From Candidatus Woesearchaeota archaeon (GTDB lineage: Archaea; Nanobdellota; Nanobdellia; SCGC-AAA011-G17; JACPNG01): a DNA stretch of 43,937 nt. Made by a program: the position numbers and the translations under genes. Below are positions 6,116 through 43,937 of the stretch, one piece after another (position 1 is the stretch's first letter; each line of letters opens with the position of its first letter). The DNA lies in the NCBI GenBank assembly GCA_016203135.1, contig JACQNI010000006.1:1-43937 (forward strand). The letters run 5' to 3'. The notes below the pieces were generated by a model. The model saw only the letters and a program-made list of their open reading frames with translations, was not told the origin of the DNA and did no database searches.

Positions 6116-6726
6116 TTTACAAGAGGTTTTAATGCAACAATCTTGCTTTCTTCAACTTTACCTGCTAATATTACATTATCAGAAGGAGTGAAATCATTTG
6201 CTGGCTCTTTACTTTCTATGGTTATGACTATCCTGTAATCTCTACTTGAATCTAATAGGTTTACAGGCCAGTCAACTTCATCATTGCTGCCTATTTGGGC
6301 AAATTTAGCAGAGAAAGGATCATCGCTTATCACTTTATTATCTTGATCTACAATATAACCGTTTTCATCTATATTAAATTTACCAGTGCTTATCTTTGCA
6401 ATAGCTTCATCGTCTTTAAATTCAACTATCCAGCCTTCATATAGATTATTAGATAATGGCTTTAGGCCTTCAAAACCAAGGATTATTAAATCATTTTTGT
6501 CATCATTACTGCTTGTTATTGTTGCAAAACCTAATATGCCTTCTAGACTGAATTCTTCTTTTGTCTCAGTAACTTTTTCTATAGGGTTTACTGGAATTTC
6601 TTGAACTGAGCTTGAAGTTATACTTTTAAAACTTATATTATCTGAAGCAATAAAGTAACCAACGACTAGACCTATTATTAGGAAAAGTATAGAATATTTA
6701 AATCTAAGCTTGTTTATCAGTCTCAT
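6112..6726 (-). CDS. Membrane-anchored protein with RskA/anti-sigma-like extracellular beta domain
   Basis: N-terminal TM helix, then LKPL...YEGWIV...ISTGKF...IVITIE...PS...L.G. Confidence 0.6.
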   Translation of the reverse strand: MRLINKLRFKYSILFLIIGLVVGYFIASDNISFKSITSSSVQEIPVNPIEKVTETKEEFSLEGILGFATITSSNDDKNDLIILGFEGLKPLSNNLYEGWIVEFKDDEAIAKISTGKFNIDENGYIVDQDNKVISDDPFSAKFAQIGSNDEVDWPVNLLDSSRDYRIVITIESKEPANDFTPSDNVILAGKVEESKIVALKPLVK

Positions 6727-6809
6727 TTTTTAATATAATTGAGAGAGTTTATATATAAACTTTTATCTGTTTTATAATGATTATCACATTACCTTGATTA
6801 AAGAATATA

Positions 6810-7187
6810 TTAATCTTTCTTTTTGCTTCTAAATGTAGAAGCTAGGTCTATTATATACTTGCCGTCTTCAAGCCTATAGACAAGTGGTTTCCCTTTAAAC
6901 AATTCAACAACATCAAGCTGGTACTTGCCTGGCTCTAATACCCTTATGGATTCAAGATCAAGGACAACTGGGCTTTCATCCCCTTCAATGCCTATAAGCT
7001 CAAAAACATCCTTTTCAATCTGGATTTTTTCTTCTGGAGTAAGGTTCTTGACTATTTCTTCTGCTTCTTTTAGCTGATTTTCCTTGATAAAGAAAAAGAA
7101 CTTTCCACCACATTCATTGCAACCTTTAAGAAGATTAACACTACCATCTGGATAAATTATATTGCACTTGACACACTGGTGAGGCAT
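6810..7187 (-). CDS. oapC: Zn-ribbon protein OapC/ArvC (DUF2072)
   Basis: MPHQCVKC...LLKGCNECGGKFF, LESIRVLEPGKYQLDV, GKYIIDL. Confidence 0.88.
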   Translation of the reverse strand: MPHQCVKCNIIYPDGSVNLLKGCNECGGKFFFFIKENQLKEAEEIVKNLTPEEKIQIEKDVFELIGIEGDESPVVLDLESIRVLEPGKYQLDVVELFKGKPLVYRLEDGKYIIDLASTFRSKKKD

Positions 7188-10188: not shown

Positions 10189-10244
10189 TTTAACATATAG
10201 TTTGATACAAAACTTTTTAAAGTTAGTTCTCTTTGATAAATAAA

Positions 10245-13200
10245 ATGATTTTAAAAGATTTAAAACAAATAGATGAAGTAACTTGGGAGATTCCTACTAG
10301 TTTTAAGAAAGGCATGTTAGTTCCTGCTAGAATAATTGCTACAAAGAAGCTTTTTGATGCAATGGATGATGGGGTTTTTGAGCAAATCACTAATGTAGCT
10401 ATGTTACCTGGAGTTCAAAATTATGTAATAGCTATGAGTGACTCTCACTTTGGCTATGGTTTTCCTGTTGGAGGAGTTGCTGCTATGGATTTAGAAGAAG
10501 GAGTTATTTCTCCTGGCGGAATCGGTTTTGATATAAATTGTTTAGCTAAAGGATCTAGAATTTTGACAAAGCATGGATATACTAAAAAAATAGAAGAATT
10601 TGAGAAAGAGTTTTATAAAGAGAATTTAATAACAATTGATCTTAAGAAAAAAAATGAAGATTCTTCTCAACCAGTTCTTTTTATGAAAAAACCAGTAAAT
10701 AAAGAAAAGGTTTATAGATTTATTACAAAAAGTGGAAAAGAAGTAATTGTTACAGAAGATCATCCTATATATACTAAAACTGGAATGAAAATAAGCAAAG
10801 ATCTTCGAGAAGGCAATGAAATTGCAGTTTTCCCATTTGAAGGAGTCCCTTATGAAAAACCAGAAGATGATTTTTTAATTACAGAAGAAGAATTTAAAGA
10901 ATTTATTAAAGATAGAAGCTTAACTTCACAAATTCAGGTAGTTAACATTTTAAAAGAAAAGGGATTATTACCTTTAGTTAGATCTTCTGATAAGTTGCCT
11001 TATTTAATAAAACTGATTGGATTTCTAACTGGAGATGGGAATATTACCTTTACTAAAAAAACACAGAGTATATCTTTTTATGCCAATGAAGAAGATTTAG
11101 GAGATATAAGAAAAGATGTAACAGCTTTAGGATTTACACCATCAAGAATACGGGCTAGAACTAGGAAACATAGCATAAAAACTAGATATGATTTAATTGA
11201 ATTTGAGAGAACAGAATATTCTTTTACTTCAATGTCTAGTGCATTAATTTTGCTCTTAAAATTTCTTGAAGCTCCATTGGGGAAAAAAACAGAATTAGAT
11301 TTTAGAATACCAAAATGGTTATTTAAATGTCCTTTATGGCAAAAAAGACTTTATTTAGCTACTTTATTTGGAGCGGAATTATCAAGCCCTTCAACCAAGA
11401 AAAATCTTGGATATACTTTTAATACTCCCACTTTATCTATGAATAAACATGAAGATCATATCAATTCTGGTTTTGAATTTTTAAACGATATTAAAAGAAT
11501 ATTGGACGAACTTAGCATAAAGACAAGGGAGATATCAATAAGGGATGAATATGATGGTTTAACTGGGAAAACTTATAGATTACGTCTTTTTATTTCAGAC
11601 GAATCTATGCTAGACTTATATAAATATGTTAATATAGAATATAATAAAAAGAAAAGGTTTCTGGCTAATCTGGCTTTACAATATTTAACCTTAAAAAAGA
11701 AGATAATTGAAGAAAGAGTAAAGATACAGAAACAAGTAATCCTTCTTTATAATAATGGAATGAAAAGCAGCGAGATCTATGAAAAGTTTTCTTCTGAACA
11801 CATTAACAAAAGATTTTTGCAAAGATCTTTGTTTGAAGGTAGAAAGACAAGTCCTAGAATTGCTTACAATTTTATTAGCTTTAATGATTTTGTTGAGAAA
11901 TATGCTTTAAATCAATCTGGAGTAGTTTGGGATTTTATAGAGAAGAAAGAAGAAGTTCAATATTCTGATTGGGTATATGATTTTACTGTTGACAATAAAT
12001 CTCATAATTTTATTGCAAATAATTTGGTTGTATCAAATTGTGGGATGAAGATTTTAAGAACAAACTTAACAATAAAAGATGTCAAGCCAAAAATAAAAGA
12101 AATTGTTCATGAATTATTTGATTCAGTTCCTACTGGAGTTGGGGCTTCTTCAAAATTAAAATTAACAGACTCTGAAATAGATGAATTATCTAGATATGGA
12201 GTAAAGTGGTGTGTAGATAATGGATATGGATGGAAAAATGATGACAAAAAAATAGAGGAGCATGGATACATCAAATGGGCCGATCCAAGCAAAGTCAGTC
12301 AAGAAGCAAGGAATAGGGGAAGAAAACAAGTAGGAACTCTAGGAAGTGGAAATCATTACCTAGAAGTTCAATTTACAAAACCAGAATTTATTTTTGATGA
12401 AAAAATTGCTAATGGATTTGGGATTAATGGAAATGATCAGATACTTATAATGGTGCATTGTGGATCAAGAGGATTTGGGCATCAAATTGCAACTGATTAT
12501 TTAAAAATATTTGATAAGGCCATGAAAAAATATAATATTACTATTCCAGATAGGGAATTAAGTTGTGCTCCTTTGAATACTAAGGAAGGACAAGATTATG
12601 TTGGCGCAATGACTTGTGCGGCTAATTATGCCTTTGCAAATAGACAGATGATAATACATAATGTAAGAGAAGCATTTAGTAAAGTCTTTAAACAATCTGC
12701 AGAAGATATGGAAATGGAAATAATTTATGATGTTGCACATAACATTGCAAAAATTGAAAAGTATAAGGTTGATGGAAGACTAAAGGAATTATTAATACAT
12801 AGAAAAGGGGCAACCAGAAGTTTTGGACCTGGAAATGAAGAGCTATGGGGGAATTATTCTAAATATGGACAGCCAGTTATTGTAGGAGGGAGTATGGAAA
12901 CTGGATCTTATTTATTGGTTGGAACTAAGAAAGCAGAAGAGACAACTTTTGGAAGCACTTTGCATGGATCTGGAAGAACAATGTCCAGAACAAAGGCTAA
13001 AGGAATGGTAAGGGGAGATAAATTGCAAAGAGACATGGAAGAAAGGGGAATATATGTTAAGGCTGCATCAATGCCTGGATTGGCTGAAGAGGCTGGATTG
13101 GCTTACAAAGATATAAATGAGGTTGTCAAGTCTGTTGAACTAGCTGGAATTTCAAAACCTGTTGTAAAATTATCTCCTCTTGGAAATATCAAAGGCACTG

Positions 13201-13268
13201 CTGGTTTTAATATTATAAACTTGTTTTTTTTATTACTGGTTGCTTTATCTTTGATCTCAATTCTGTAA
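10245..13268 (+). CDS. rtcB: RNA-splicing/repair ligase RtcB containing an intein
   Basis: DSHFGYGFPVG, GFDIN/CG, GTLGSGNHYLE, HCGSRG, YDVAHN, HRKGATR, HGSGR, AEEA..AYK, PLGNIKG. Start ATG 10245 preferred over TTG 10233. Confidence 0.97.
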   Translation: MILKDLKQIDEVTWEIPTSFKKGMLVPARIIATKKLFDAMDDGVFEQITNVAMLPGVQNYVIAMSDSHFGYGFPVGGVAAMDLEEGVISPGGIGFDINCLAKGSRILTKHGYTKKIEEFEKEFYKENLITIDLKKKNEDSSQPVLFMKKPVNKEKVYRFITKSGKEVIVTEDHPIYTKTGMKISKDLREGNEIAVFPFEGVPYEKPEDDFLITEEEFKEFIKDRSLTSQIQVVNILKEKGLLPLVRSSDKLPYLIKLIGFLTGDGNITFTKKTQSISFYANEEDLGDIRKDVTALGFTPSRIRARTRKHSIKTRYDLIEFERTEYSFTSMSSALILLLKFLEAPLGKKTELDFRIPKWLFKCPLWQKRLYLATLFGAELSSPSTKKNLGYTFNTPTLSMNKHEDHINSGFEFLNDIKRILDELSIKTREISIRDEYDGLTGKTYRLRLFISDESMLDLYKYVNIEYNKKKRFLANLALQYLTLKKKIIEERVKIQKQVILLYNNGMKSSEIYEKFSSEHINKRFLQRSLFEGRKTSPRIAYNFISFNDFVEKYALNQSGVVWDFIEKKEEVQYSDWVYDFTVDNKSHNFIANNLVVSNCGMKILRTNLTIKDVKPKIKEIVHELFDSVPTGVGASSKLKLTDSEIDELSRYGVKWCVDNGYGWKNDDKKIEEHGYIKWADPSKVSQEARNRGRKQVGTLGSGNHYLEVQFTKPEFIFDEKIANGFGINGNDQILIMVHCGSRGFGHQIATDYLKIFDKAMKKYNITIPDRELSCAPLNTKEGQDYVGAMTCAANYAFANRQMIIHNVREAFSKVFKQSAEDMEMEIIYDVAHNIAKIEKYKVDGRLKELLIHRKGATRSFGPGNEELWGNYSKYGQPVIVGGSMETGSYLLVGTKKAEETTFGSTLHGSGRTMSRTKAKGMVRGDKLQRDMEERGIYVKAASMPGLAEEAGLAYKDINEVVKSVELAGISKPVVKLSPLGNIKGTAGFNIINLFFLLLVALSLISIL
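10539..12038 (+). mobile_element. 500-aa intein with LAGLIDADG homing endonuclease in rtcB
   Basis: Starts CLAKGSRILT. Block B VTEDHP, endonuclease motifs LIGFLTGDG and YLATLFGAEL, ends VYDFTV...HNFIANNLVVSN. The +1 residue is the RtcB metal-ligand Cys. Confidence 0.95.
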
Positions 13269-34746: not shown

Positions 34747-35941
34747 ATGTATGAAATATTAATCTCAATTTTAATAGGTATCTCTGCCGGAATAATAACC
34801 GGCTTGATTCCCAGGCATTCATACTAATCTTGTTGCTGTTTTAATGATCTCCCTTTCTAACTACTTATTAAAAATTTTCTCTCCGTTAGATCTAGTGATT
34901 ATCATTTTATCCATGGCAATAACAAATACATTTTTAGATTCAATCCCATCCATTTTTCTTGGAGCCCCAGATACATCTACTTCTATTTCTATCTTGCCAG
35001 GCCACAGATTATTAATGAAAGGCAAAGGCTTTGAAGCAGTAATCCTTTCATTGATCGGATCTTCAATATCCTTGCTAATAGTCATAGCATTATTTCCATT
35101 TACATTAAAAATAATAAAGATTGGATATCCAATAATAGAAAGATACATAGCTTATATCTTGATATCTGCAAGTGTTATTTTTATTATTAAAGAAAAAAAA
35201 TCCAAATTTCTGGCTTTTCTGCTATTTTTAAGTTCAGGAATACTAGGAATTGTTTCATTTTCCCTAGGCATTAAAGACGTTCTTTTTCCAATGCTTTCTG
35301 GCTTGTTTGGAATAAGCACATTATTGACTAGTTTAAACAACAATACAAAAATCCCAAATCAAATTATCTCATATCCAAAAATTACAAACAAGGAAAAAAT
35401 AACAGTTTTCTCTTCAATTTTCATCTCAAGTTTTTTTACAACAGTTCTTCCTGGTTTTAGTTCAGCCGAAGCATCTTCAATAGGAACATCAATATTCAAG
35501 AATATCAAAGGCAATTTATTTCTTGTCTTGGCTAGCGGAATAAACACATCAAGCATGATCTTAAGCATATTTACATTATATGCTATAGACAAGGCAAGAA
35601 ATGGTGCTGTAGTTGCCATATCAAGAATAATAGAAAACCTTAATCAAAACAATTTTATTTTATTGATTTCAGTTTCTTTAATCTCTTCTTCTATTGCAAT
35701 TCTGCTTGCGATAAACATTACAAAGTACATATCAAAAATAATTCCAAAGATAAATTACAATTTTTTATGCATTTCAATAATAATCTTTATTTCTGGATTA
35801 GTAATTATATTGTCTGGTTTTTATGGTTTCCTTGTTTTAGTAACTTCAACCTTTCTTGGAATAATTCCCCAAACAAAAAACATTGCAAGAAGTCATTTAA
35901 TGGGCTGTATACTTTTGCCAGTAATCTTGTATTTTATCTAG
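34747..35941 (+). CDS. TctA/DUF112 family permease with a +1 frameshift near codon 22
   Basis: TFLDSIPSIFLGAP, LPGHRLL..G.G, DKARNG. The conserved GIITGLIPGIH.N N-terminus is restored only by removing one C from ccc at 34810-34812. Confidence 0.8.
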
Positions 35942-38900
35942 ACTTTTTAGTCTTTTTCTTAGTTTTTAATATTTGTTCCTTTTTATTGCCGACTTTAATG
36001 GTCTCTGTAATTTTTTTATTATTAGTGGTTGTTTTTTTCTTTTTAACTTCTTTTTTTTCAGAGATTTTTCTTTTAGCAGCTTCAAGCTTTTTAACTTCCT
36101 TTTCAACTTTAACTTCAGGAGTCTTAAATAATATCTCTGGTGTTTTTATTTCAACTTTTTTAAACGACTTTGAATAATTCAATGCATTTCCTATGTCTTT
36201 TAAATTCCATCCAGCAGCCAATAGTTTATTTCTTATCTCTTCCTCGCTTACTCCCTTTTGTATGTTTAGCTTAGCATATTCATAAAGCCTATCCAAAACC
36301 TGTTTTCTCTTTACTACCTTCTCAGCATATTTAAATGATTCATCTATTTCATCTTGATTCCATCCAGCATCAAGTGAAGCCCTTCTTATCTCCTCCTTAT
36401 CCCTGCCCCTTTCTAAGCTTATTTTCACATAATCATTTAGCTGATTTATATTTGAATGTTTTTGCAGGACATTTTCAACATTCTTGAAAGAGCTTGCTAT
36501 TTTTTTATTCAGCTCATTAAAGTCTGGCTTTTCTCCCAAAAATAATTTTTTATTTTCCTGTTTTGTTTTTCTTTTTTTCATGGCAAAATAATAAGCAAGA
36601 ACTAAGATCAATAATAAGGCAGCTAAAATTCCGACTACTGTCCAAATAGATCCACCCTTGCTTTCCTTGCAATCACTAGGACAGTTAGTGCTATCTTCTC
36701 TATATCCATTTCCAAAGTCATCACAATTTCCATTTTCATTGCATACTGGCAATGAATCATCTCCATCATTAGTTCCATCATTATCTGTATCAGGATTATT
36801 TGGATCTGTTCCTGCTTCAACTTCTTCACTATCTGTTAATCCATCATTATCACTATCTCTTCCTGGACCTTCAGATATTCCACAATCACTAGGACAATTA
36901 CTGCTGGTCTCTCCAAGAGTGCAACTTCCGTCCCCGCATACTTTTGCCCCAGTATCACTGATGCATATACCATCAGTTTTACAAACCTTTCCAGCAGGAC
37001 ATCCACATAAAGAGCATTTCTCTTCTAAAACCCCAGATCTGCAGAAAAATGGCTTGTCATCAGAACACTCACTAAATGTTGTTCCATCTCCACATTCAAA
37101 GTCATCTGTTACTTGACAACTTGTATCATTTAAATCAACAAAATTATTGCAATCATTATCCAAGACATCATCGCAACTTTCTTCAGGGCTTTCATAATCG
37201 TCTATGTTATTATACTTACATTCCCCCCATAAACTATTGATGCATGTTTGATTGAATCCCTTACAAACCCCAAATTGTTTAACACATAATCTTGTTGTTA
37301 AATTCACTTGTATTCCTGTGCTATTGTTTCTAACAGCACAAGGACATCCTTCATCAGCACTTCCCTCACAGTTATTATCTAATCCATCAAAACAAACCTC
37401 TGCTGTAGGTCCAATTACACCAATGCAAGTACTCCCCCATAATCCATTGCTTTCACATCTCTGTACTCCAGCATTGCATATTCCAACAGAATTCCCACAA
37501 GACCTAGTAGTTCCAGCCACACATGGACCACATCCTTCATCAACAACATTATCGCAATCATTATCTTGATTATCACAAACTTCTAGACTTGGATATTTAA
37601 CCCCAACGCATTCACCCCATACAGCCCCAATAGAACTTTGAACACATTGCTGCATTCCTTGAATGCAAGCATTTGTTCCTCCGCAAGTCCTTATTTGATT
37701 TAATGTGCATTGTGGGCATCCTTCGTCTGAACTTCCATCACAGTCATTATCTAAATTATCCCCACAGAATTCAATTCCAGGATTTACTGAATTTTTGCAC
37801 TCACCCCATTCTCCTATTCCTTGACTGTTTACATTAATACAAGATTGAAGGCCATAACTACAAATTCCAACATCGCTTCCACATTGTTTTGTCTGATCCT
37901 TCACACAAGAATTACAACCTTCATTTATGCTTCCATCACAATCATTATCTAAATCATCATTGCATACCTCAGCACCATACTTAGGAATACTTGTATAATC
38001 ACATCCAGGCCACCTGCTATTTGTACATATTTCAAGAGAACCCTGGCAAACCCCTAATTGTTTAGGGCAGCTCTGTCTTTCTCCATTTGTACATTGTTGG
38101 CCAAGTGTACAGCTAGGATCAGCCTTAATACATTGGCCATATTTACTATTCGTCTGACAAGATCTAATATATTCACATTCTTTTGCATCAGGAACTTGTT
38201 GTTCATTTGGATAACACCTTATTTTATCATTTTGATTGCATTCAGCGCATTGAGTTGTATCTAAAGATTTGCAATTAACACAAGTTAAAGTTCCAGAAAC
38301 AAAATCATCAAATAATTTATCTCCATCTGCTTTAAGGCTTGTACAAGTTAAGCTTCCAGCAAATTTGCTTCCATCACATATTTCTCCTTGATCTATATTT
38401 CCATTGCCACATTGAGAAGGATCATTCTTTGGTAAGCATTCACTAAAATCAAAATTACATTTATTTGTTTGACTTGGAGGAATACATTTCAAAGTTCCAC
38501 CAGTAAGTCCAGGGAAATCAGTACATTTTTTATTGTTTAAATCTACATCATCACAAGACTCTCCAGTTTCTTGTATTTTATTGCCACAAACCGGAGTAGT
38601 TATTACACCACCTTCACATTGACTAGAATCATAAGATAAACAATCAGCTTTGCATTTTAATTGTCCTGATTTAAATGCTAAACTTTGACAAGTTTTTCCA
38701 TCTAAATCAGTTCCATCACAAGTTTCTCCCTTTTCCTTGACATTATTTGGACAAACTGGTTTTGTACAACTGCTGAAATCAAAATTGCAATTATTGCATT
38801 TTAATTGTCCTCCCAAGTAATTATCAAACTCAGGAGCACATGTCTTCCCTCCTAAATCAGTTCCATCACAAGCTTCTCCAGGATTTATTACCCCATTATT

Positions 38901-41288
38901 ATTACAGGTTGGGTTTGGTGTACATGTACTAAAATCAAAATTACTACAATCAGCTTTGCATTTTAAATTTCCTCCTGTAAATCCAGTAAAAGTAGTACAT
39001 TGTTTATTATCTAAGTCAGCTCTATCACATATTTCATTACCTTCTTTTATATTATTGCCACATGTTGATGGAGGTAATATTGTAGTCCCTTGACAAATTA
39101 CAGAGTAAACTCCAGGTTCAGTAACTGTTGCTTCTGCTTTTCCACTAACAATATTTGTTTGTAAAATTTGCCATGAAAAGCATTGGCTTGAAGTATATCC
39201 ATATTTAACTAACTTAATTTTATCTGTCTGGCAATTTGCTGAGTTATCATAACTTAAACTTAATTTTGTATTGCAGTTTCCAACATAATAAGACAATCCC
39301 GCTATGAGGTTATTACAATCTTCTTTATCAACTCCAAGAGGATTAGTTTCACAATTTCCTTTTGTTATAGTTGGTATAAATAATCTACATTCATTATTTA
39401 CTGCAAATCCAGTTATTTCTTTAACAGCTGCCCCAGTTGCAGGACATCCACTTGGTTGACCTGGATTTTGCTTGTTAAAACTAAAAGTAAATGTTTGTTG
39501 TTTTGTCCCCCTTGCTACATTAAGAACAACACTTTGGAAATCAGCAAGATTTTGAGATTTAAACGTAACAACATAAGTTAAATCCACAGAATGAGCAGAT
39601 GTAGAAGTTGTTAATGCATTGCTATTATCTGAAATTGTTATCTGTTCTTGGGATAATATCGGAGCCCCAATATCATTATATCCTATTGGCACTTGATTGA
39701 AAACAGCATCTGCCCTATAATTGCAATTTGTATCTGCTTGCACATTCAAAACAGTCCCTTGTGTAAGTTGAAGTATTTCATTAGAACCACTCGAAGTTCC
39801 GCCAGTCCCTGGATTAGGATTAATTGCTATAATGCCATCATTTGAAACACATTTATGCTGACCTAAATCATATATATCATTAGCCCCACAGCAATATCCA
39901 GCAATATATCTTCCATTGCAAGCATAAGTACATATAGCTTTTTTCCCATCAGCTACCTTGCAAGCACTTCCAGTCAAGCTACAACTTTGGCACCTATAAT
40001 TGCTACTGCAAGTGCTAGTGCAAGTTCCAACTAAATCTTGGCTTATAGTGCTACATTGACTTTGTTGTCCGCATCCTTTTTGTTGTGCTCCCCCAATTAC
40101 ATTCCCACCGCCACCAATTACTGGATCGCTTGCTGGTATGCATTCAACACAATTTCCAAGGCTGTTGCAATAGGGTGTTGCTCCAGAACATTGAACATCA
40201 TTCGTGCATTTTGTTTGTGGTGCACAATCACTATCCTGATTGTCTTTATTTCCATCGCAGTCATTATCCAAACTATCAGTACATCTTGTTTCTTTTTGCT
40301 CTGTTGGAATACATACTTGAGATTTTATACACTTCCCTTGTGAACAGGTTAATCCTTGGGAGCAGGTTAAAACTCCAGGGTCTGTTCTAGAACTACAACA
40401 ATCCTGGTTTTCATTTCCGCAAGTTGTAGAAGCTATGCAAAGATTATCTATGCAAGTTAATCCTTGATTGCAAGTTGCAGGTCCAAAAACAGATCTTGGT
40501 CTACAGCATTCTTGTCCAGAAGCACCACAAGTTAGTGTTGTTGTACTTATGCATTTTCCACTACTTGAATCCCATTTTTCTCCTTGTCCGCATATATAAA
40601 ATTTTCCGCATGAAATTGTTAGTAAATTACCAGATAAAGTCTCACCAACCTTCAACTTCGCGTTATATATTCCAGTGATATAAGCTGAAGGAATTATGTT
40701 TTGATTAAGTTCTGAAAAAGATCCAGAGCTATCTGTCCTAACTTTACTTTCAAATTTTGGTTCACCTTCAGAGTTTCCGTAAGAATTTATTAAAGTATAT
40801 TCTTTATTTGCAATACCTTTGCTTATATCAATTTTGATATTTGCCGGATCGCCAACATTTCTAACAGGAACCCCATCAGAATTAAGAGGACTCCCACCAC
40901 TAACCAAACAGCTTACAGAAGGAGGAACACAAGCGCCATTTTTACATTCAAACCCATTGGCACAATCCTGATCTGTAGATAAAGCGTCTGTATTTTCATT
41001 ATTGCAATAAAATTCATTAACAGTATCTCCATCAACACAGCCATCAATATATAAAACTTCAGATGTGCTGCCATCATCATAAACATATTCAACAGAAACT
41101 TCTCCCTTAACACCAATATTAAAACCATTGTCAGTCTCTGCTAAGCAGGTTGACTGAACTAATTTTGGACAAAATAATTCAAAACCAGAACCATCACACC
41201 AAAAAGGAGCAGCTTTTACATCACTTACAAAAATTATTCCAAATAGCAAAATAACAAATACAAAGATCAAACCATTTTTTTTAATCAT
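35934..41288 (-). CDS. Giant Cys-rich single-pass cell-surface protein (1784 aa)
   Basis: Signal peptide, CGN..E.GE.CD repeats, E.C.D.LDNDCDG..DEGC repeats, TSP3-like DSDNDGL...DTDNDG, TM IWTVVGILAALLLILVLAYYFAM, basic tail with two AGWN repeats. Confidence 0.92.
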   Translation of the reverse strand: MIKKNGLIFVFVILLFGIIFVSDVKAAPFWCDGSGFELFCPKLVQSTCLAETDNGFNIGVKGEVSVEYVYDDGSTSEVLYIDGCVDGDTVNEFYCNNENTDALSTDQDCANGFECKNGACVPPSVSCLVSGGSPLNSDGVPVRNVGDPANIKIDISKGIANKEYTLINSYGNSEGEPKFESKVRTDSSGSFSELNQNIIPSAYITGIYNAKLKVGETLSGNLLTISCGKFYICGQGEKWDSSSGKCISTTTLTCGASGQECCRPRSVFGPATCNQGLTCIDNLCIASTTCGNENQDCCSSRTDPGVLTCSQGLTCSQGKCIKSQVCIPTEQKETRCTDSLDNDCDGNKDNQDSDCAPQTKCTNDVQCSGATPYCNSLGNCVECIPASDPVIGGGGNVIGGAQQKGCGQQSQCSTISQDLVGTCTSTCSSNYRCQSCSLTGSACKVADGKKAICTYACNGRYIAGYCCGANDIYDLGQHKCVSNDGIIAINPNPGTGGTSSGSNEILQLTQGTVLNVQADTNCNYRADAVFNQVPIGYNDIGAPILSQEQITISDNSNALTTSTSAHSVDLTYVVTFKSQNLADFQSVVLNVARGTKQQTFTFSFNKQNPGQPSGCPATGAAVKEITGFAVNNECRLFIPTITKGNCETNPLGVDKEDCNNLIAGLSYYVGNCNTKLSLSYDNSANCQTDKIKLVKYGYTSSQCFSWQILQTNIVSGKAEATVTEPGVYSVICQGTTILPPSTCGNNIKEGNEICDRADLDNKQCTTFTGFTGGNLKCKADCSNFDFSTCTPNPTCNNNGVINPGEACDGTDLGGKTCAPEFDNYLGGQLKCNNCNFDFSSCTKPVCPNNVKEKGETCDGTDLDGKTCQSLAFKSGQLKCKADCLSYDSSQCEGGVITTPVCGNKIQETGESCDDVDLNNKKCTDFPGLTGGTLKCIPPSQTNKCNFDFSECLPKNDPSQCGNGNIDQGEICDGSKFAGSLTCTSLKADGDKLFDDFVSGTLTCVNCKSLDTTQCAECNQNDKIRCYPNEQQVPDAKECEYIRSCQTNSKYGQCIKADPSCTLGQQCTNGERQSCPKQLGVCQGSLEICTNSRWPGCDYTSIPKYGAEVCNDDLDNDCDGSINEGCNSCVKDQTKQCGSDVGICSYGLQSCINVNSQGIGEWGECKNSVNPGIEFCGDNLDNDCDGSSDEGCPQCTLNQIRTCGGTNACIQGMQQCVQSSIGAVWGECVGVKYPSLEVCDNQDNDCDNVVDEGCGPCVAGTTRSCGNSVGICNAGVQRCESNGLWGSTCIGVIGPTAEVCFDGLDNNCEGSADEGCPCAVRNNSTGIQVNLTTRLCVKQFGVCKGFNQTCINSLWGECKYNNIDDYESPEESCDDVLDNDCNNFVDLNDTSCQVTDDFECGDGTTFSECSDDKPFFCRSGVLEEKCSLCGCPAGKVCKTDGICISDTGAKVCGDGSCTLGETSSNCPSDCGISEGPGRDSDNDGLTDSEEVEAGTDPNNPDTDNDGTNDGDDSLPVCNENGNCDDFGNGYREDSTNCPSDCKESKGGSIWTVVGILAALLLILVLAYYFAMKKRKTKQENKKLFLGEKPDFNELNKKIASSFKNVENVLQKHSNINQLNDYVKISLERGRDKEEIRRASLDAGWNQDEIDESFKYAEKVVKRKQVLDRLYEYAKLNIQKGVSEEEIRNKLLAAGWNLKDIGNALNYSKSFKKVEIKTPEILFKTPEVKVEKEVKKLEAAKRKISEKKEVKKKKTTTNNKKITETIKVGNKKEQILKTKKKTKKSR

Positions 41289-41832: not shown

Positions 41833-43937
41833 TTAACTAAACCATTTAACCAAATCCCTTTGAACTTCCTTCTCTTTGCCAAAAACGCTTTCTATTCTTT
41901 TTTTAGTCAATTCTAATGTTTGTTTCAAATATAATGGTAAATCATATTTTTCAGCTAGTTCAATGCTTGGTTCTAGGTATTTTACTATGCTTCCCTCAGA
42001 AACAGTAAAAATAATTCTGCCCTTGCACTTTACGCAGTTTCCCGTTAACGGCGGTCTTCTATATTTCATATTGCAATCAACACATCTAAAGCCCTGCATT
42101 CCAAATTTTCTTAGGTTTCCTTTTATATCTCTGATGAAATGTCTTTCTATTATCAGCCTTGCAACATCACTTTCATCTACTGCCCTTATCTTCTCAGCCA
42201 AGCCCATCTGCCCCCTTACCTTATCAATCATGGTTGGAATTGATTTATAAGCGCTGCATCTAACCCCCATATTTATGTCAGAAGTATTATGTGTAAACAT
42301 CAGTCCTTGATATTGCTCTGGTTTATTCAATGTTTCTTTATACACTTTTACTTTTACATCAAAAGGAGATCCGTAATTTAAGGCAGTTTCATAAAGTTCC
42401 AAAGGATATTTGCTTGCAATGTCCAGGTCATATATCATATCGTCTACCTCGCTAGGAATAAGTCTTGATGTCAAAACCAATGGTGCGTCTTGTGTAGTTC
42501 CCCTGTGGCTTGGCAAGTATTTTCTAGAAAAATTTAACAATCCATCCATTAATAATAAAACACAGGCTTCATCCCCGTCACATCTTGTATTTATTATTTG
42601 TTCGCCCCATAAGATATTTTTATCCTCTTGGCTTTTCCAATCTATTTCCACGCAATAAGAATTTCTCTTTTTTTTAATGATTTCAACTTTCTTAACATAA
42701 TCTGTAAAATAGTCGCTATTTGCCTGTAGAGGGATAAGCCTGTTATTAAATTTAATGTTTCTCTTGTCCATTTCTTTTAACGAATCAAGCTTTATGGATT
42801 TTATCCTGCTATTTAACCTAAGTATTCTTTTAAGGTTAGTGGCATCTATCCCATTAATGATTAAATGATTTAGAATATGTTTTTTAGGTTCTCTTCCCAA
42901 TAATTTATATATGTTCAATACTTTCCTTCCAGGCAATCTTGGTTTGGTGGTAAGGTATCTACAAAAAATCTCAAAGCGGTTTAACAATAAAGAAATGTCA
43001 TCAAGTAAAGACCTATTCACAGAATAAAAAGCAACAAAGTTTCTTTTTTTTGTAGAAATAATTGAACCATCTCCATCAAGGTAAGCCGAAATAAATTCTA
43101 TTATCAAATCTTTATCCAAGCCATATACAAAACTAGGAACTCTCTTTTCATAGGCATTTTTGCCAATTTTAAAGCAATCATTAAATAAGTGGTATAAGAG
43201 CTTGCTACATATTGTAATTTTAGAATTATCTTCTCCCAAATTTGTCTTAAGACTAAAAACTTTTTTGATGGTTGAAATTAAGTCATTTTGAAGGTCTTTT
43301 TCACACACCCTAAAACAAATTTGGCTTACTTGTTTGTTGCTTCTAGAATAACCTTCAGCAAGATAATAGCCAAGAATTCTCATTAAGCCTTTGTTTAAGT
43401 TCAAATTAACTGGAAATTCATGTTTGCTAAACATAAACCTCAGCTTGGTTCCATTTTCTAAATCCTCGATCTTAACCAAACCAAGATTAATTAATTTTTC
43501 TAGATGATAAATTGTTACATATTCGCTTAGTCTTTTGATATTAATTTGGGATCCAAAATTTTTTTTGATGCCTTCAAGATTATCTCTAAAAAGAGTGTAA
43601 AAAAAATGTTCTTGCCCTTTTATTAAGATCTTCTTTTTTGTTCTATCATCCAAATTCTCAATAAAAAGTTCTGCCAAATTCAAATTGTTTTTAAAATCGA
43701 AATCTAGGTTTAGCTTAGATAATGTGGCAACCCTATCACCAACTTTTGCCTCTTTTGCATTCTTAAATTTAAAGTTACCCCTCTCGTCTAAATACATAAA
43801 TTTATGTGTTTTTGTCATTAGGTATTCTCTATTCGAAGTAGTTATTATTTTTACCCATTCTTTATTAACTGGCCCTTTAATGAAGTACCTTATTTTCTTA
43901 AATATCAATTTCTTGCTATTGGGGGCTATCCCAAGGC
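41833..43937 (-). CDS. polC: DNA polymerase D large subunit DP2, 3' part (5'-truncated by the window)
   Basis: CDGDEA..LLLMDGLLNFS, DAPLVL, HFIRDIKGNLR, FRCVDC...YRRPPL...CVKC, TVSEGSIVKY, PIP box QRDLVKWF. Frame open to the window edge. Confidence 0.96.
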   Translation of the reverse strand, partial: LGIAPNSKKLIFKKIRYFIKGPVNKEWVKIITTSNREYLMTKTHKFMYLDERGNFKFKNAKEAKVGDRVATLSKLNLDFDFKNNLNLAELFIENLDDRTKKKILIKGQEHFFYTLFRDNLEGIKKNFGSQINIKRLSEYVTIYHLEKLINLGLVKIEDLENGTKLRFMFSKHEFPVNLNLNKGLMRILGYYLAEGYSRSNKQVSQICFRVCEKDLQNDLISTIKKVFSLKTNLGEDNSKITICSKLLYHLFNDCFKIGKNAYEKRVPSFVYGLDKDLIIEFISAYLDGDGSIISTKKRNFVAFYSVNRSLLDDISLLLNRFEIFCRYLTTKPRLPGRKVLNIYKLLGREPKKHILNHLIINGIDATNLKRILRLNSRIKSIKLDSLKEMDKRNIKFNNRLIPLQANSDYFTDYVKKVEIIKKKRNSYCVEIDWKSQEDKNILWGEQIINTRCDGDEACVLLLMDGLLNFSRKYLPSHRGTTQDAPLVLTSRLIPSEVDDMIYDLDIASKYPLELYETALNYGSPFDVKVKVYKETLNKPEQYQGLMFTHNTSDINMGVRCSAYKSIPTMIDKVRGQMGLAEKIRAVDESDVARLIIERHFIRDIKGNLRKFGMQGFRCVDCNMKYRRPPLTGNCVKCKGRIIFTVSEGSIVKYLEPSIELAEKYDLPLYLKQTLELTKKRIESVFGKEKEVQRDLVKWFS
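42583..43937 (-). mobile_element. LAGLIDADG intein in DP2 with an atypical C-terminus (N-terminus outside the window)
   Basis: Block B MTKTH, endonuclease motifs ILGYYLAEG and FISAYLDGDG, block F SYCVEI, junction GEQIINTR/CDGDE. Confidence 0.9.

Follow-up and report, generated by a model that had tools for sequence, protein, structure and literature searches.

Protein splicing is held to close with a cleavage that is common to all three intein classes, the cyclization of a terminal Asn or, rarely, of a terminal Gln, Asp or Glu. The same four residues are named as the cyclizing intein termini in a 2014 review (PMC4031507). The closest described relatives of the element reported here are the PolII (DP2) inteins of Pyrococcus abyssi and P. 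horikoshii (PDB 2LCJ, 7OEC, 5BKH) and of Methanoculleus marisnigri, which end in Gln and occupy the same host protein and insertion point. In the P. horikoshii PolII intein, His154 at block F position 13 (F:13) lies 3.4 Å from the terminal Gln166 and is thought to activate it (PMC8229266). The present study concerns an intein in the DP2 gene of the DNA polymerase PolD from a Candidatus Woesearchaeota archaeon (GenBank assembly GCA_016203135.1). Most of this intein is encoded on contig JACQNI010000006.1, which was analysed at its full length of 43,937 nucleotides and is called the window below. It has Arg at the cyclizing position. Conservation among its many relatives suggests that Arg-ending DP2 inteins probably finish splicing by an undescribed route.

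The DP2 locus and its splice junctions

The window is a whole contig (C88) of a 912,243-base genome in 92 contigs, with a completeness of 93.4%. Its DP2 open reading frame (41833..43935, minus strand) encodes 700 residues; the 5' end is open at the contig end and the stop codon is at 41833-41835. The reverse complement of 42568-42600 reads CAA ATA ATA AAT ACA AGA TGT GAC GGG GAT GAA, which is translated as Q-I-I-N-T-R-C-D-G-D-E. The intein tail is G-E-Q-I-I-N-T-R, followed directly by the C-D-G-D-E motif of the host protein, whose Cys is the first C-extein residue (Cys+1). A preliminary description of the window, made from the sequence alone, had read the N-T-R-C-D-G-D-E codons in the same way. 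It had also recorded that the penultimate His and the block F His are missing, and both observations hold: the penultimate residue is Thr, and Lys takes the place of the block F His in E-D-K-N-I-L-W.

Pfam analysis showed that the PolC_DP2_cat domain (PF24846) begins exactly at Cys+1 (residues 451-572, profile positions 176-299). Upstream of Cys+1 there are matches to LAGLIDADG_3 (PF14528) and to Intein_splicing (PF14890), the latter with an E-value of 1.5e-08 and 35.1 bits against a cut-off of 35.8, for a fragment without block A. The DP2 catalytic-domain profile matches this genome at two places only, the window (positions 176-299) and bases 184-723 of contig C3 (positions 5-177). On both pieces the profile is interrupted at positions 176/177, which places an insertion between RR(D/N) and CDGDE. 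On C3, the N-extein ends in ..HCMMRRD and is followed by the intein start CVYPK; 62 intein residues are read before the contig end, and the last 20 nucleotides of C3 are identical to the window end. Joined on the basis of this 20-nucleotide overlap and of colinearity with relatives, the intein has 507 residues. A contig from run X1 extends 19 nucleotides beyond the window end and gave no bridge to C3. The insertion site is the classical RR(D/N)/CDGDE site of DP2.

The DP1 gene adjoins DP2 on C3. One DP2 gene was found in the genome, and PolD is the sole replicative polymerase detected. The family B DNA polymerase profiles PF00136 and PF03104 had no match in this genome, which is 93.4% complete. 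Since a single DP2 gene and no alternative from family B were found, splicing is probably required in this host.

The preliminary description had suggested reading the upstream N-extein and looking for homologues with a similar tail. The N-terminal junction on C3 reads RRD/C and is unshifted, and nine other genomes of the order share the I-(I/L)-N-x-R ending before CDGDE. These nine came from a survey of 101 genomes of the order, consisting of 100 searched genomes and the present one. The Arg-type DP2 intein thus occurs in 10 of the 101; x is T, M, F or L, and all readable starts are RRD/C. Thirteen genomes have a different intein at the same DP2 site, which ends in Gln or Asn. The six intein-free DP2 genes that were read have RRDC(D/E)GDE. 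Since the starts are RRD/C and the intein-free genes read RRDC(D/E)GDE, both exteins are complete and Thr(-2) is not the +1 nucleophile. Judged from these aligned sequences, the intein runs from Cys1 to Arg and is followed by Cys+1, with unshifted junctions.

Two of the loci with a Gln-ending intein have unusual exteins. In L028 (genome G043, contig C28), the N-extein is out of frame just upstream of the intein, and the open frame has 735 residues. In L032 (genome G075, contig C24), C-D-A-D-E takes the place of C-D-G-D-E in the C-extein.

The Arg codon is well supported by independent sequences. Run X1 may represent the source sample, and its contig of 4156 nucleotides matches 42300-43937 without a difference. 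The junction is also spanned by contigs with about 95% identity from two other studies (X5 record 13 and X6 record 18). Their difference table, which gives the best-supported differences only, has no entry at 42580-42591; the nearest are at 42562 (a synonymous Cys change) and 42665. A sequencing error restoring Asn or Gln before Cys, which the preliminary description had kept in view, was not seen, and contigs from three studies agree at the junction. Among the ten Arg-type loci, the Arg codon is AGA in five, AGG in three, CGA in one and CGT in one, so that both codon families are used (L018 and L019 differ very little). The same genome encodes six other inteins, each with a terminal Asn before T, C or S. 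The Arg-terminal intein is a real feature. The contigs with about 95% identity over 42300-43830 come from soil and groundwater metagenomes (runs X5 and X6).

Phylogenetic and sequence analysis of the Arg-ending inteins

When the intein part was searched against a database, 205 matches reached E <= 1e-10, and the best 120 were listed. The presence of LAGLIDADG domains among the listed matches was taken from Pfam; a motif regular expression proved too strict (9/96) and was discarded. In 97 of the best 120 of 205, a terminal Arg stands directly before C-D/E-G-D (96 parsed by script, and P0084 by eye). The other members of this sample end in Asn (17; 16 parsed plus P0089) or Gln (6). Among the Arg-ending proteins parsed by script (96), position -3 is N in 58, Q in 27, T in 7 and S in 4, and position -2 is T in 39, I in 31, A in 11, V in 5, L in 4, F in 4, S in 1 and M in 1. 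The tail of P0084 is Met-Pro-Arg, and the Asn/Gln-ending inteins have T, S or V at -3. The -3 counts indicate that the Asn(-3) of the window's subgroup is not general. According to their source names, the Arg-ending members belong to Pacearchaeota, Woesearchaeota, Nanoarchaeia, Micrarchaeota, Thermoplasmatales and Methanobacteriota. Such a host spread fits autonomous splicing in varied hosts. In P0084, the Arg-ending intein is followed by C-D-G-D-Q-D.

The 137 parsed inteins reduced to 133 distinct sequences, 100 with a terminal Arg and 33 with Asn or Gln at the end. In the tail preceding Cys+1, only the final Arg is invariant (100/100). Phylogenetic trees were reconstructed with FastTree after removal of the last residue. 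In the unrooted tree, a single branch with a local support of 0.979 separates the 100 Arg-ending inteins from the 33 others, with zero exceptions. On this sequence evidence, the Arg-ending DP2 inteins form one old, mobile clade.

Several other positions are linked to the terminal residue. The Arg group, whose members have identities to the query down to 26%, shows no variation at Cys1, Thr B:7, His B:10 or Cys+1 (100% each). F:13 is K (53) or R (47) in the Arg group, versus H in 63% and N in 18% of the Asn/Gln group. The F:13 Lys and the terminal Arg are 12 residues apart, equal to the spacing of His154 and Gln166 in the P. horikoshii PolII intein; the putatively Gln-activating position of that intein co-varies with the terminal residue in DP2 inteins. 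F:4 is C in 100/100 of the Arg group, versus C in 15, D in 14 and S in 4 of the 33. A block F insertion of about six residues is present in the Arg group and absent from the Asn/Gln group. Alignment column 58 is acidic in 100% of the Arg group, versus E in 45% and N in 45% of the Asn/Gln group, and the Arg clade also has E or D at block F columns 60, 67 and 68. In the N-terminal half, an extra Trp is found in 100% of the Arg group and in none of the Asn/Gln group, which has L, M, K or I there.

Within the Asn/Gln group, Asp at F:4 co-occurs only with terminal Asn (14/14). Asp is absent from F:4 in the 14 Gln-ending inteins of the DP2 site, which have Cys (11 of them) or Ser there. This pattern fits a descent of the Arg clade from a Gln-ending type with Cys at F:4, as far as sequence correlations confounded by relatedness may indicate. 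When the Asn/Gln-ending inteins were ranked by distance from the Arg-clade branch, no single sister group emerged.

Fold and class membership

The 193-residue mini-intein L034 of the clade was modelled with AlphaFold2 (12 flanking residues per side, 18-row alignment), with a pLDDT of 80.6. In the model, the last strand stops just before Arg. A Foldseek search with this model retrieved inteins only, and the best PDB match was the P. abyssi PolII intein 2LCJ (E 3.3e-10). A PDB sequence search with a full clade member found no close relative, only PI-PkoII (E 1.1e-10) and the CDC21 intein (E 2e-4).

The intein has most features of class 1: the HINT fold (in the L034 model), Cys1, T-x-x-H in block B, and Cys at the start of the C-extein. 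The C-terminal Asn, Gln, Asp or Glu of that class is replaced by Arg. A His at F:13 and G:6, which is frequent but not obligatory, is also absent; the window has Lys and Thr at these positions, and across the clade F:13 is K or R, while G:6 is T, I, A, V, L or F. Two LAGLIDADG motifs and the PF14528 match identify a homing endonuclease, whose nuclease function is predicted. The class 3 pattern was not found: residue 1 is Cys, and the window has Phe at B:12, Cys at F:4 and Asn at G:5. In the clade, B:12 is F in 65%, V in 15% and I in 14%, and Thr is found at G:5 in 7%.

Proposed splicing mechanism

The analyses make it fairly likely that the element is a real, splicing-competent, Arg-ended intein with an undescribed third step. 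Splicing is suggested by the invariant N-terminal machinery, the intact exteins, the single DP2 gene with no other replicative polymerase, and the patchy distribution of an endonuclease-bearing element in many hosts. Since Cys1, Thr B:7, His B:10 and Cys+1 are invariant, the first two steps would be canonical: an N-S acyl shift at Cys1, and then transfer of the N-extein to Cys+1. The third step, scission of the Arg-Cys bond, cannot be the described cyclization of Asn, Gln, Asp or Glu.

For this third step, an attack of the Arg N-epsilon on its own backbone carbonyl is tentatively favoured. It would give a six-membered delta-lactam. This route is possible rather than probable, and it rests on chemistry. 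Activated Arg forms delta-lactams in peptide synthesis. The ring size and the position of the attacking atom would be the same as those of Gln N-epsilon-2 in the glutarimide route of the Gln-ending inteins at the DP2 site. The co-substituted Lys or Arg at F:13 and the acidic cluster of block F would assist the cyclization. A first Gln-to-Arg mutant would need one base change in a CAR codon, and could have retained some activity in the same pocket because the Arg N-epsilon stands at the same chain position as Gln N-epsilon-2. Such a mechanism would define a further mechanistic class of protein splicing, and would be the first in which a protein is cleaved by nucleophilic attack from the side chain of Arg; this reading, too, is possible rather than probable. 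The preliminary description had proposed undescribed chemistry as one of two options and had stated that Arg cannot cyclize. The first proposal gains support from sequence conservation, with Arg kept in 100/100 together with the rest of the splicing machinery. The second was too strong, as the six-membered lactam is chemically conceivable, yet it is unknown in inteins.

Several points weigh against this explanation, in general or for the Arg route in particular. Splicing competence is deduced from conservation, and no product, protein or transcript has been observed. Cys+1 doubles as a residue of the catalytic motif, and its conservation is uninformative on splicing. The guanidinium group (pKa near 13.8) is a very poor nucleophile unless deprotonated, and to our knowledge no enzyme cuts a peptide bond by attack of an Arg side chain. 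The interchange of Lys and Arg at F:13 is easier to reconcile with an electrostatic role than with a general base. The tree is unrooted, and an ancestral Gln is no more than a candidate. A family B polymerase gene could lie in the unassembled part of the genome, which is 93.4% complete. One clade member, L016 (genome G007, contig C1), has an in-frame TAA in the endonuclease part. By analogy with class 3 inteins, where the F:4 Cys is a nucleophile on a backbone amide, the invariant F:4 Cys of the clade would favour a thiol route about equally. The TAA of L016 stands at the Tyr position of its relatives (..N-A-stop-T-K-K-V-P), and could be explained by a broken copy, by polymorphism or by an error.

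In the thiol route, the Cys at F:4, or Cys1 freed after the second step, would cut the Arg-Cys bond and form a C-terminal thioester (thiolactone) that is later hydrolysed. With Cys1, a rearrangement into a backbone-circular intein could follow, so that the excised intein would be either a thiolactone or a circular protein. The role of Arg would be confined to fixing the scissile bond within an acidic pocket. The distribution of Cys at F:4 (100/100 Arg-ending versus 15/33 Asn/Gln-ending inteins) and the conserved acidic residues of block F (column 58, E or D in 100%; columns 60, 67 and 68) are in its favour. Reports on class 3 inteins also describe an F:4 Cys that attacks a backbone amide and an F:4 residue that matters at both junctions (PMC4031507, PMC2807308). 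However, Cys at F:4 in 11 of the 14 Gln-ending inteins at this site means that it may be merely inherited, a simple anchor would be expected to be Lys occasionally, and no intein is known to cleave its C-terminal junction by a thiol. This route is considered rather unlikely.

Cleavage at the C-terminal junction might also be lacking. The intein would then be kept as a domain, or would cut the N-terminal junction only, and PolD would work with the intein in place; otherwise DP2 would be inactive. The intein termini are near each other, so the loop could in principle carry the insert; the catalytic motif alone explains the conservation of Cys+1; and the present data contain no spliced product. 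On the other hand, the insertion is one residue from the catalytic acidic triad, in the only DP2 gene of a genome where no family B polymerase was found. All 100 distinct sequences keep Cys1, Thr B:7 and His B:10, Arg is maintained across four codons, and the exteins remain open and conserved. Homing into new hosts would be lethal without splicing. A retained intein is therefore quite unlikely.

A host protease or ligase acting in trans might cut after Arg, with an intein that is not self-sufficient. The fixed Arg does resemble a protease P1 preference. The action of such a factor would have to wait until the branch has formed, and it would have to be available in hosts of several archaeal phyla (by source names), with very small genomes, for an element that is patchy and mobile (10/101 genomes of the order). 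This explanation is very unlikely.

The preliminary description had offered, as its other option, a junction shifted by two residues, in which Asn(-3) cyclizes, Thr(-2) is the +1 nucleophile, and Thr-Arg is kept in the mature polymerase. The window's own N-T-R-C tail would permit it, and I-I-N resembles the end of block G. The shift is refuted by the N-terminal junction RRD/CVYPK and by the intein-free relatives, none of which (0/6) has two extra residues. In the wider sample, -2 is I, A, V, L, F or M, without a nucleophile, in 56/96 relatives, including M, F or L in the close relatives L014, L015, L020 and L034; -3 is Asn in only 58/96, and P0084 has Met-Pro-Arg. Moreover, the tail aligns without gaps to the Asn/Gln-ending inteins, with Arg opposite Asn or Gln. 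The shifted junction is ruled out for practical purposes.

Two related schemes were rejected. Asn(-3) cyclization with loss of a dipeptide, or with a long-range acyl shift, was suggested by N-x-R at the ten loci; it was dropped as a general explanation, since 12/97 wider relatives have T, S or M at -3 and T or S also occurs there in the Asn/Gln-ending inteins. A shift of both junctions by one residue leaves no nucleophile at either end. Finally, although the DP2 gene is split over two contigs with the break inside the intein, a sequencing or assembly error or an unusual codon reading has a negligible chance, given concordant contigs from three studies, a 20-nucleotide overlap colinear with relatives, Arg encoded by AGA, AGG, CGA and CGT, six canonical inteins in the same genome, and the recurrence of this ending in nine further genomes of the order as well as in 97 of the best 120 of 205 database proteins.

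Features of the locus and neighbouring genes

The coordinates of the features discussed above are collected in Table 1.

Table 1. Features of the DP2 intein and its C-extein in the window
Feature	Position	Strand	Remarks
C-terminal 451 of 507 intein residues, LAGLIDADG type	42583..43937	-	First 62 residues on contig C3, 20-nucleotide overlap
Block B T-K-T-H: Thr B:7 and His B:10, N-terminal junction activators	43804..43815	-	
LAGLIDADG homing endonuclease core (predicted)	43063..43374	-	Motifs at 43345-43374 and 43063-43092; PF14528, E 4.7e-12
Cys at block F position 4 (F:4), within S-Y-C-V-E	42652..42654	-	
Block F segment D-W-K-S-Q-E-D: Arg-clade insertion of about six residues and conserved acidic residues	42622..42642	-	
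Lys at block F position 13 (F:13), within E-D-K-N-I-L-W	42619..42621	-	His expected
Asn(-3) (42589-42591) and Thr(-2), block G positions 5 and 6	42586..42591	-	Both variable in the clade
Terminal Arg codon AGA, block G position 7	42583..42585	-	Asn/Gln expected; Arg in 100/100 distinct clade members
Cys+1 codon TGT, C-extein nucleophile, first residue of CDGDE	42580..42582	-	
PolD DP2 C-extein from Cys+1 of CDGDE, including stop 41833-41835	41833..42582	-	PF24846, E 4.5e-41

The whole genome (0.9 Mb) has fifteen matches to the intein splicing profile. In the window, an RtcB tRNA-splicing ligase gene (10233-13268, plus strand; PF01139, E 8e-164) carries a canonical intein, which ends in ..V-V-S-N before C at about 12038. 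At locus L005 on contig C5 of this genome (about 6605-6886, plus strand), another intein ends in ..T-K-N and is followed by C-F-P-Y-N-A-D-F-D-G-D-E. This host sequence resembles the catalytic loop of RNA polymerase subunit A', which we take to be the two-barrel-fold counterpart of the DP2 site.

The window also encodes a 1784-residue, very Cys-rich protein at 35934-41288 (minus strand). It has many repeated Cys modules, hydrophobic stretches near the N- and C-terminus, and a Lys-rich tail, together with a bacterial TSP3 repeat and a MopE-like metal-binding motif. It is probably a giant surface protein.

Comparison with known inteins

The Arg-ending DP2 inteins make up a large and so far undescribed variant lineage, with a final step that no described mechanism explains. 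A search of the full-text literature, with subscription-only papers and supplements outside its scope, found no description of an Arg-ending intein. A large, old and mobile lineage in an essential polymerase has retained Arg at the cyclizing position. This implies either a new self-cleavage chemistry or a polymerase active site that tolerates an unremoved insert of 500 residues. Where intein-finding or annotation tools demand a terminal Asn or Gln, such inteins will be overlooked or wrongly trimmed, and a new C-terminal cleavage chemistry could serve protein engineering.

Among known systems, the PolII inteins of Pyrococcus and Methanoculleus are the closest. They share Cys1, Cys+1, the HINT fold, the block B T-x-x-H motif, and a non-Asn terminus with an epsilon nitrogen. 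The Arg type differs in having Arg instead of Gln, Lys or Arg instead of His at F:13, Cys at F:4, and the six-residue insertion in block F. The Pyrococcus PolII inteins are proven to splice, according to two reports (PMC4031507, PMC8229266), whereas splicing of the Arg type is predicted from sequence.

The Asn/Gln-ending LAGLIDADG inteins of DP2 include loci L021-L033 in related small archaea and P0094-P0120 in Thermococcales, haloarchaea and Nanohaloarchaea. They are homologous to the Arg type (26-39% identity to the query), have the same site and the same type of endonuclease, and often have Cys at F:4. They differ in the terminus, lack the block F insertion, and lie on the other side of the tree split.

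Class 3 inteins, of the mycobacteriophage Bethlehem DnaB type, share the invariant F:4 Cys, which serves there as a nucleophile on a backbone amide. However, they have no N-terminal nucleophile, and have Trp at B:12, Thr at G:5 and a terminal Asn (PMC2807308). Other inteins that end in Gln, Asp or Glu, such as the RNR intein of Chilo iridescent virus, have natural non-Asn termini and still splice, according to the review (PMC4031507). The side chains of Gln, Asp and Glu carry a carbonyl able to form an imide or an anhydride, whereas that of Arg has no such carbonyl.

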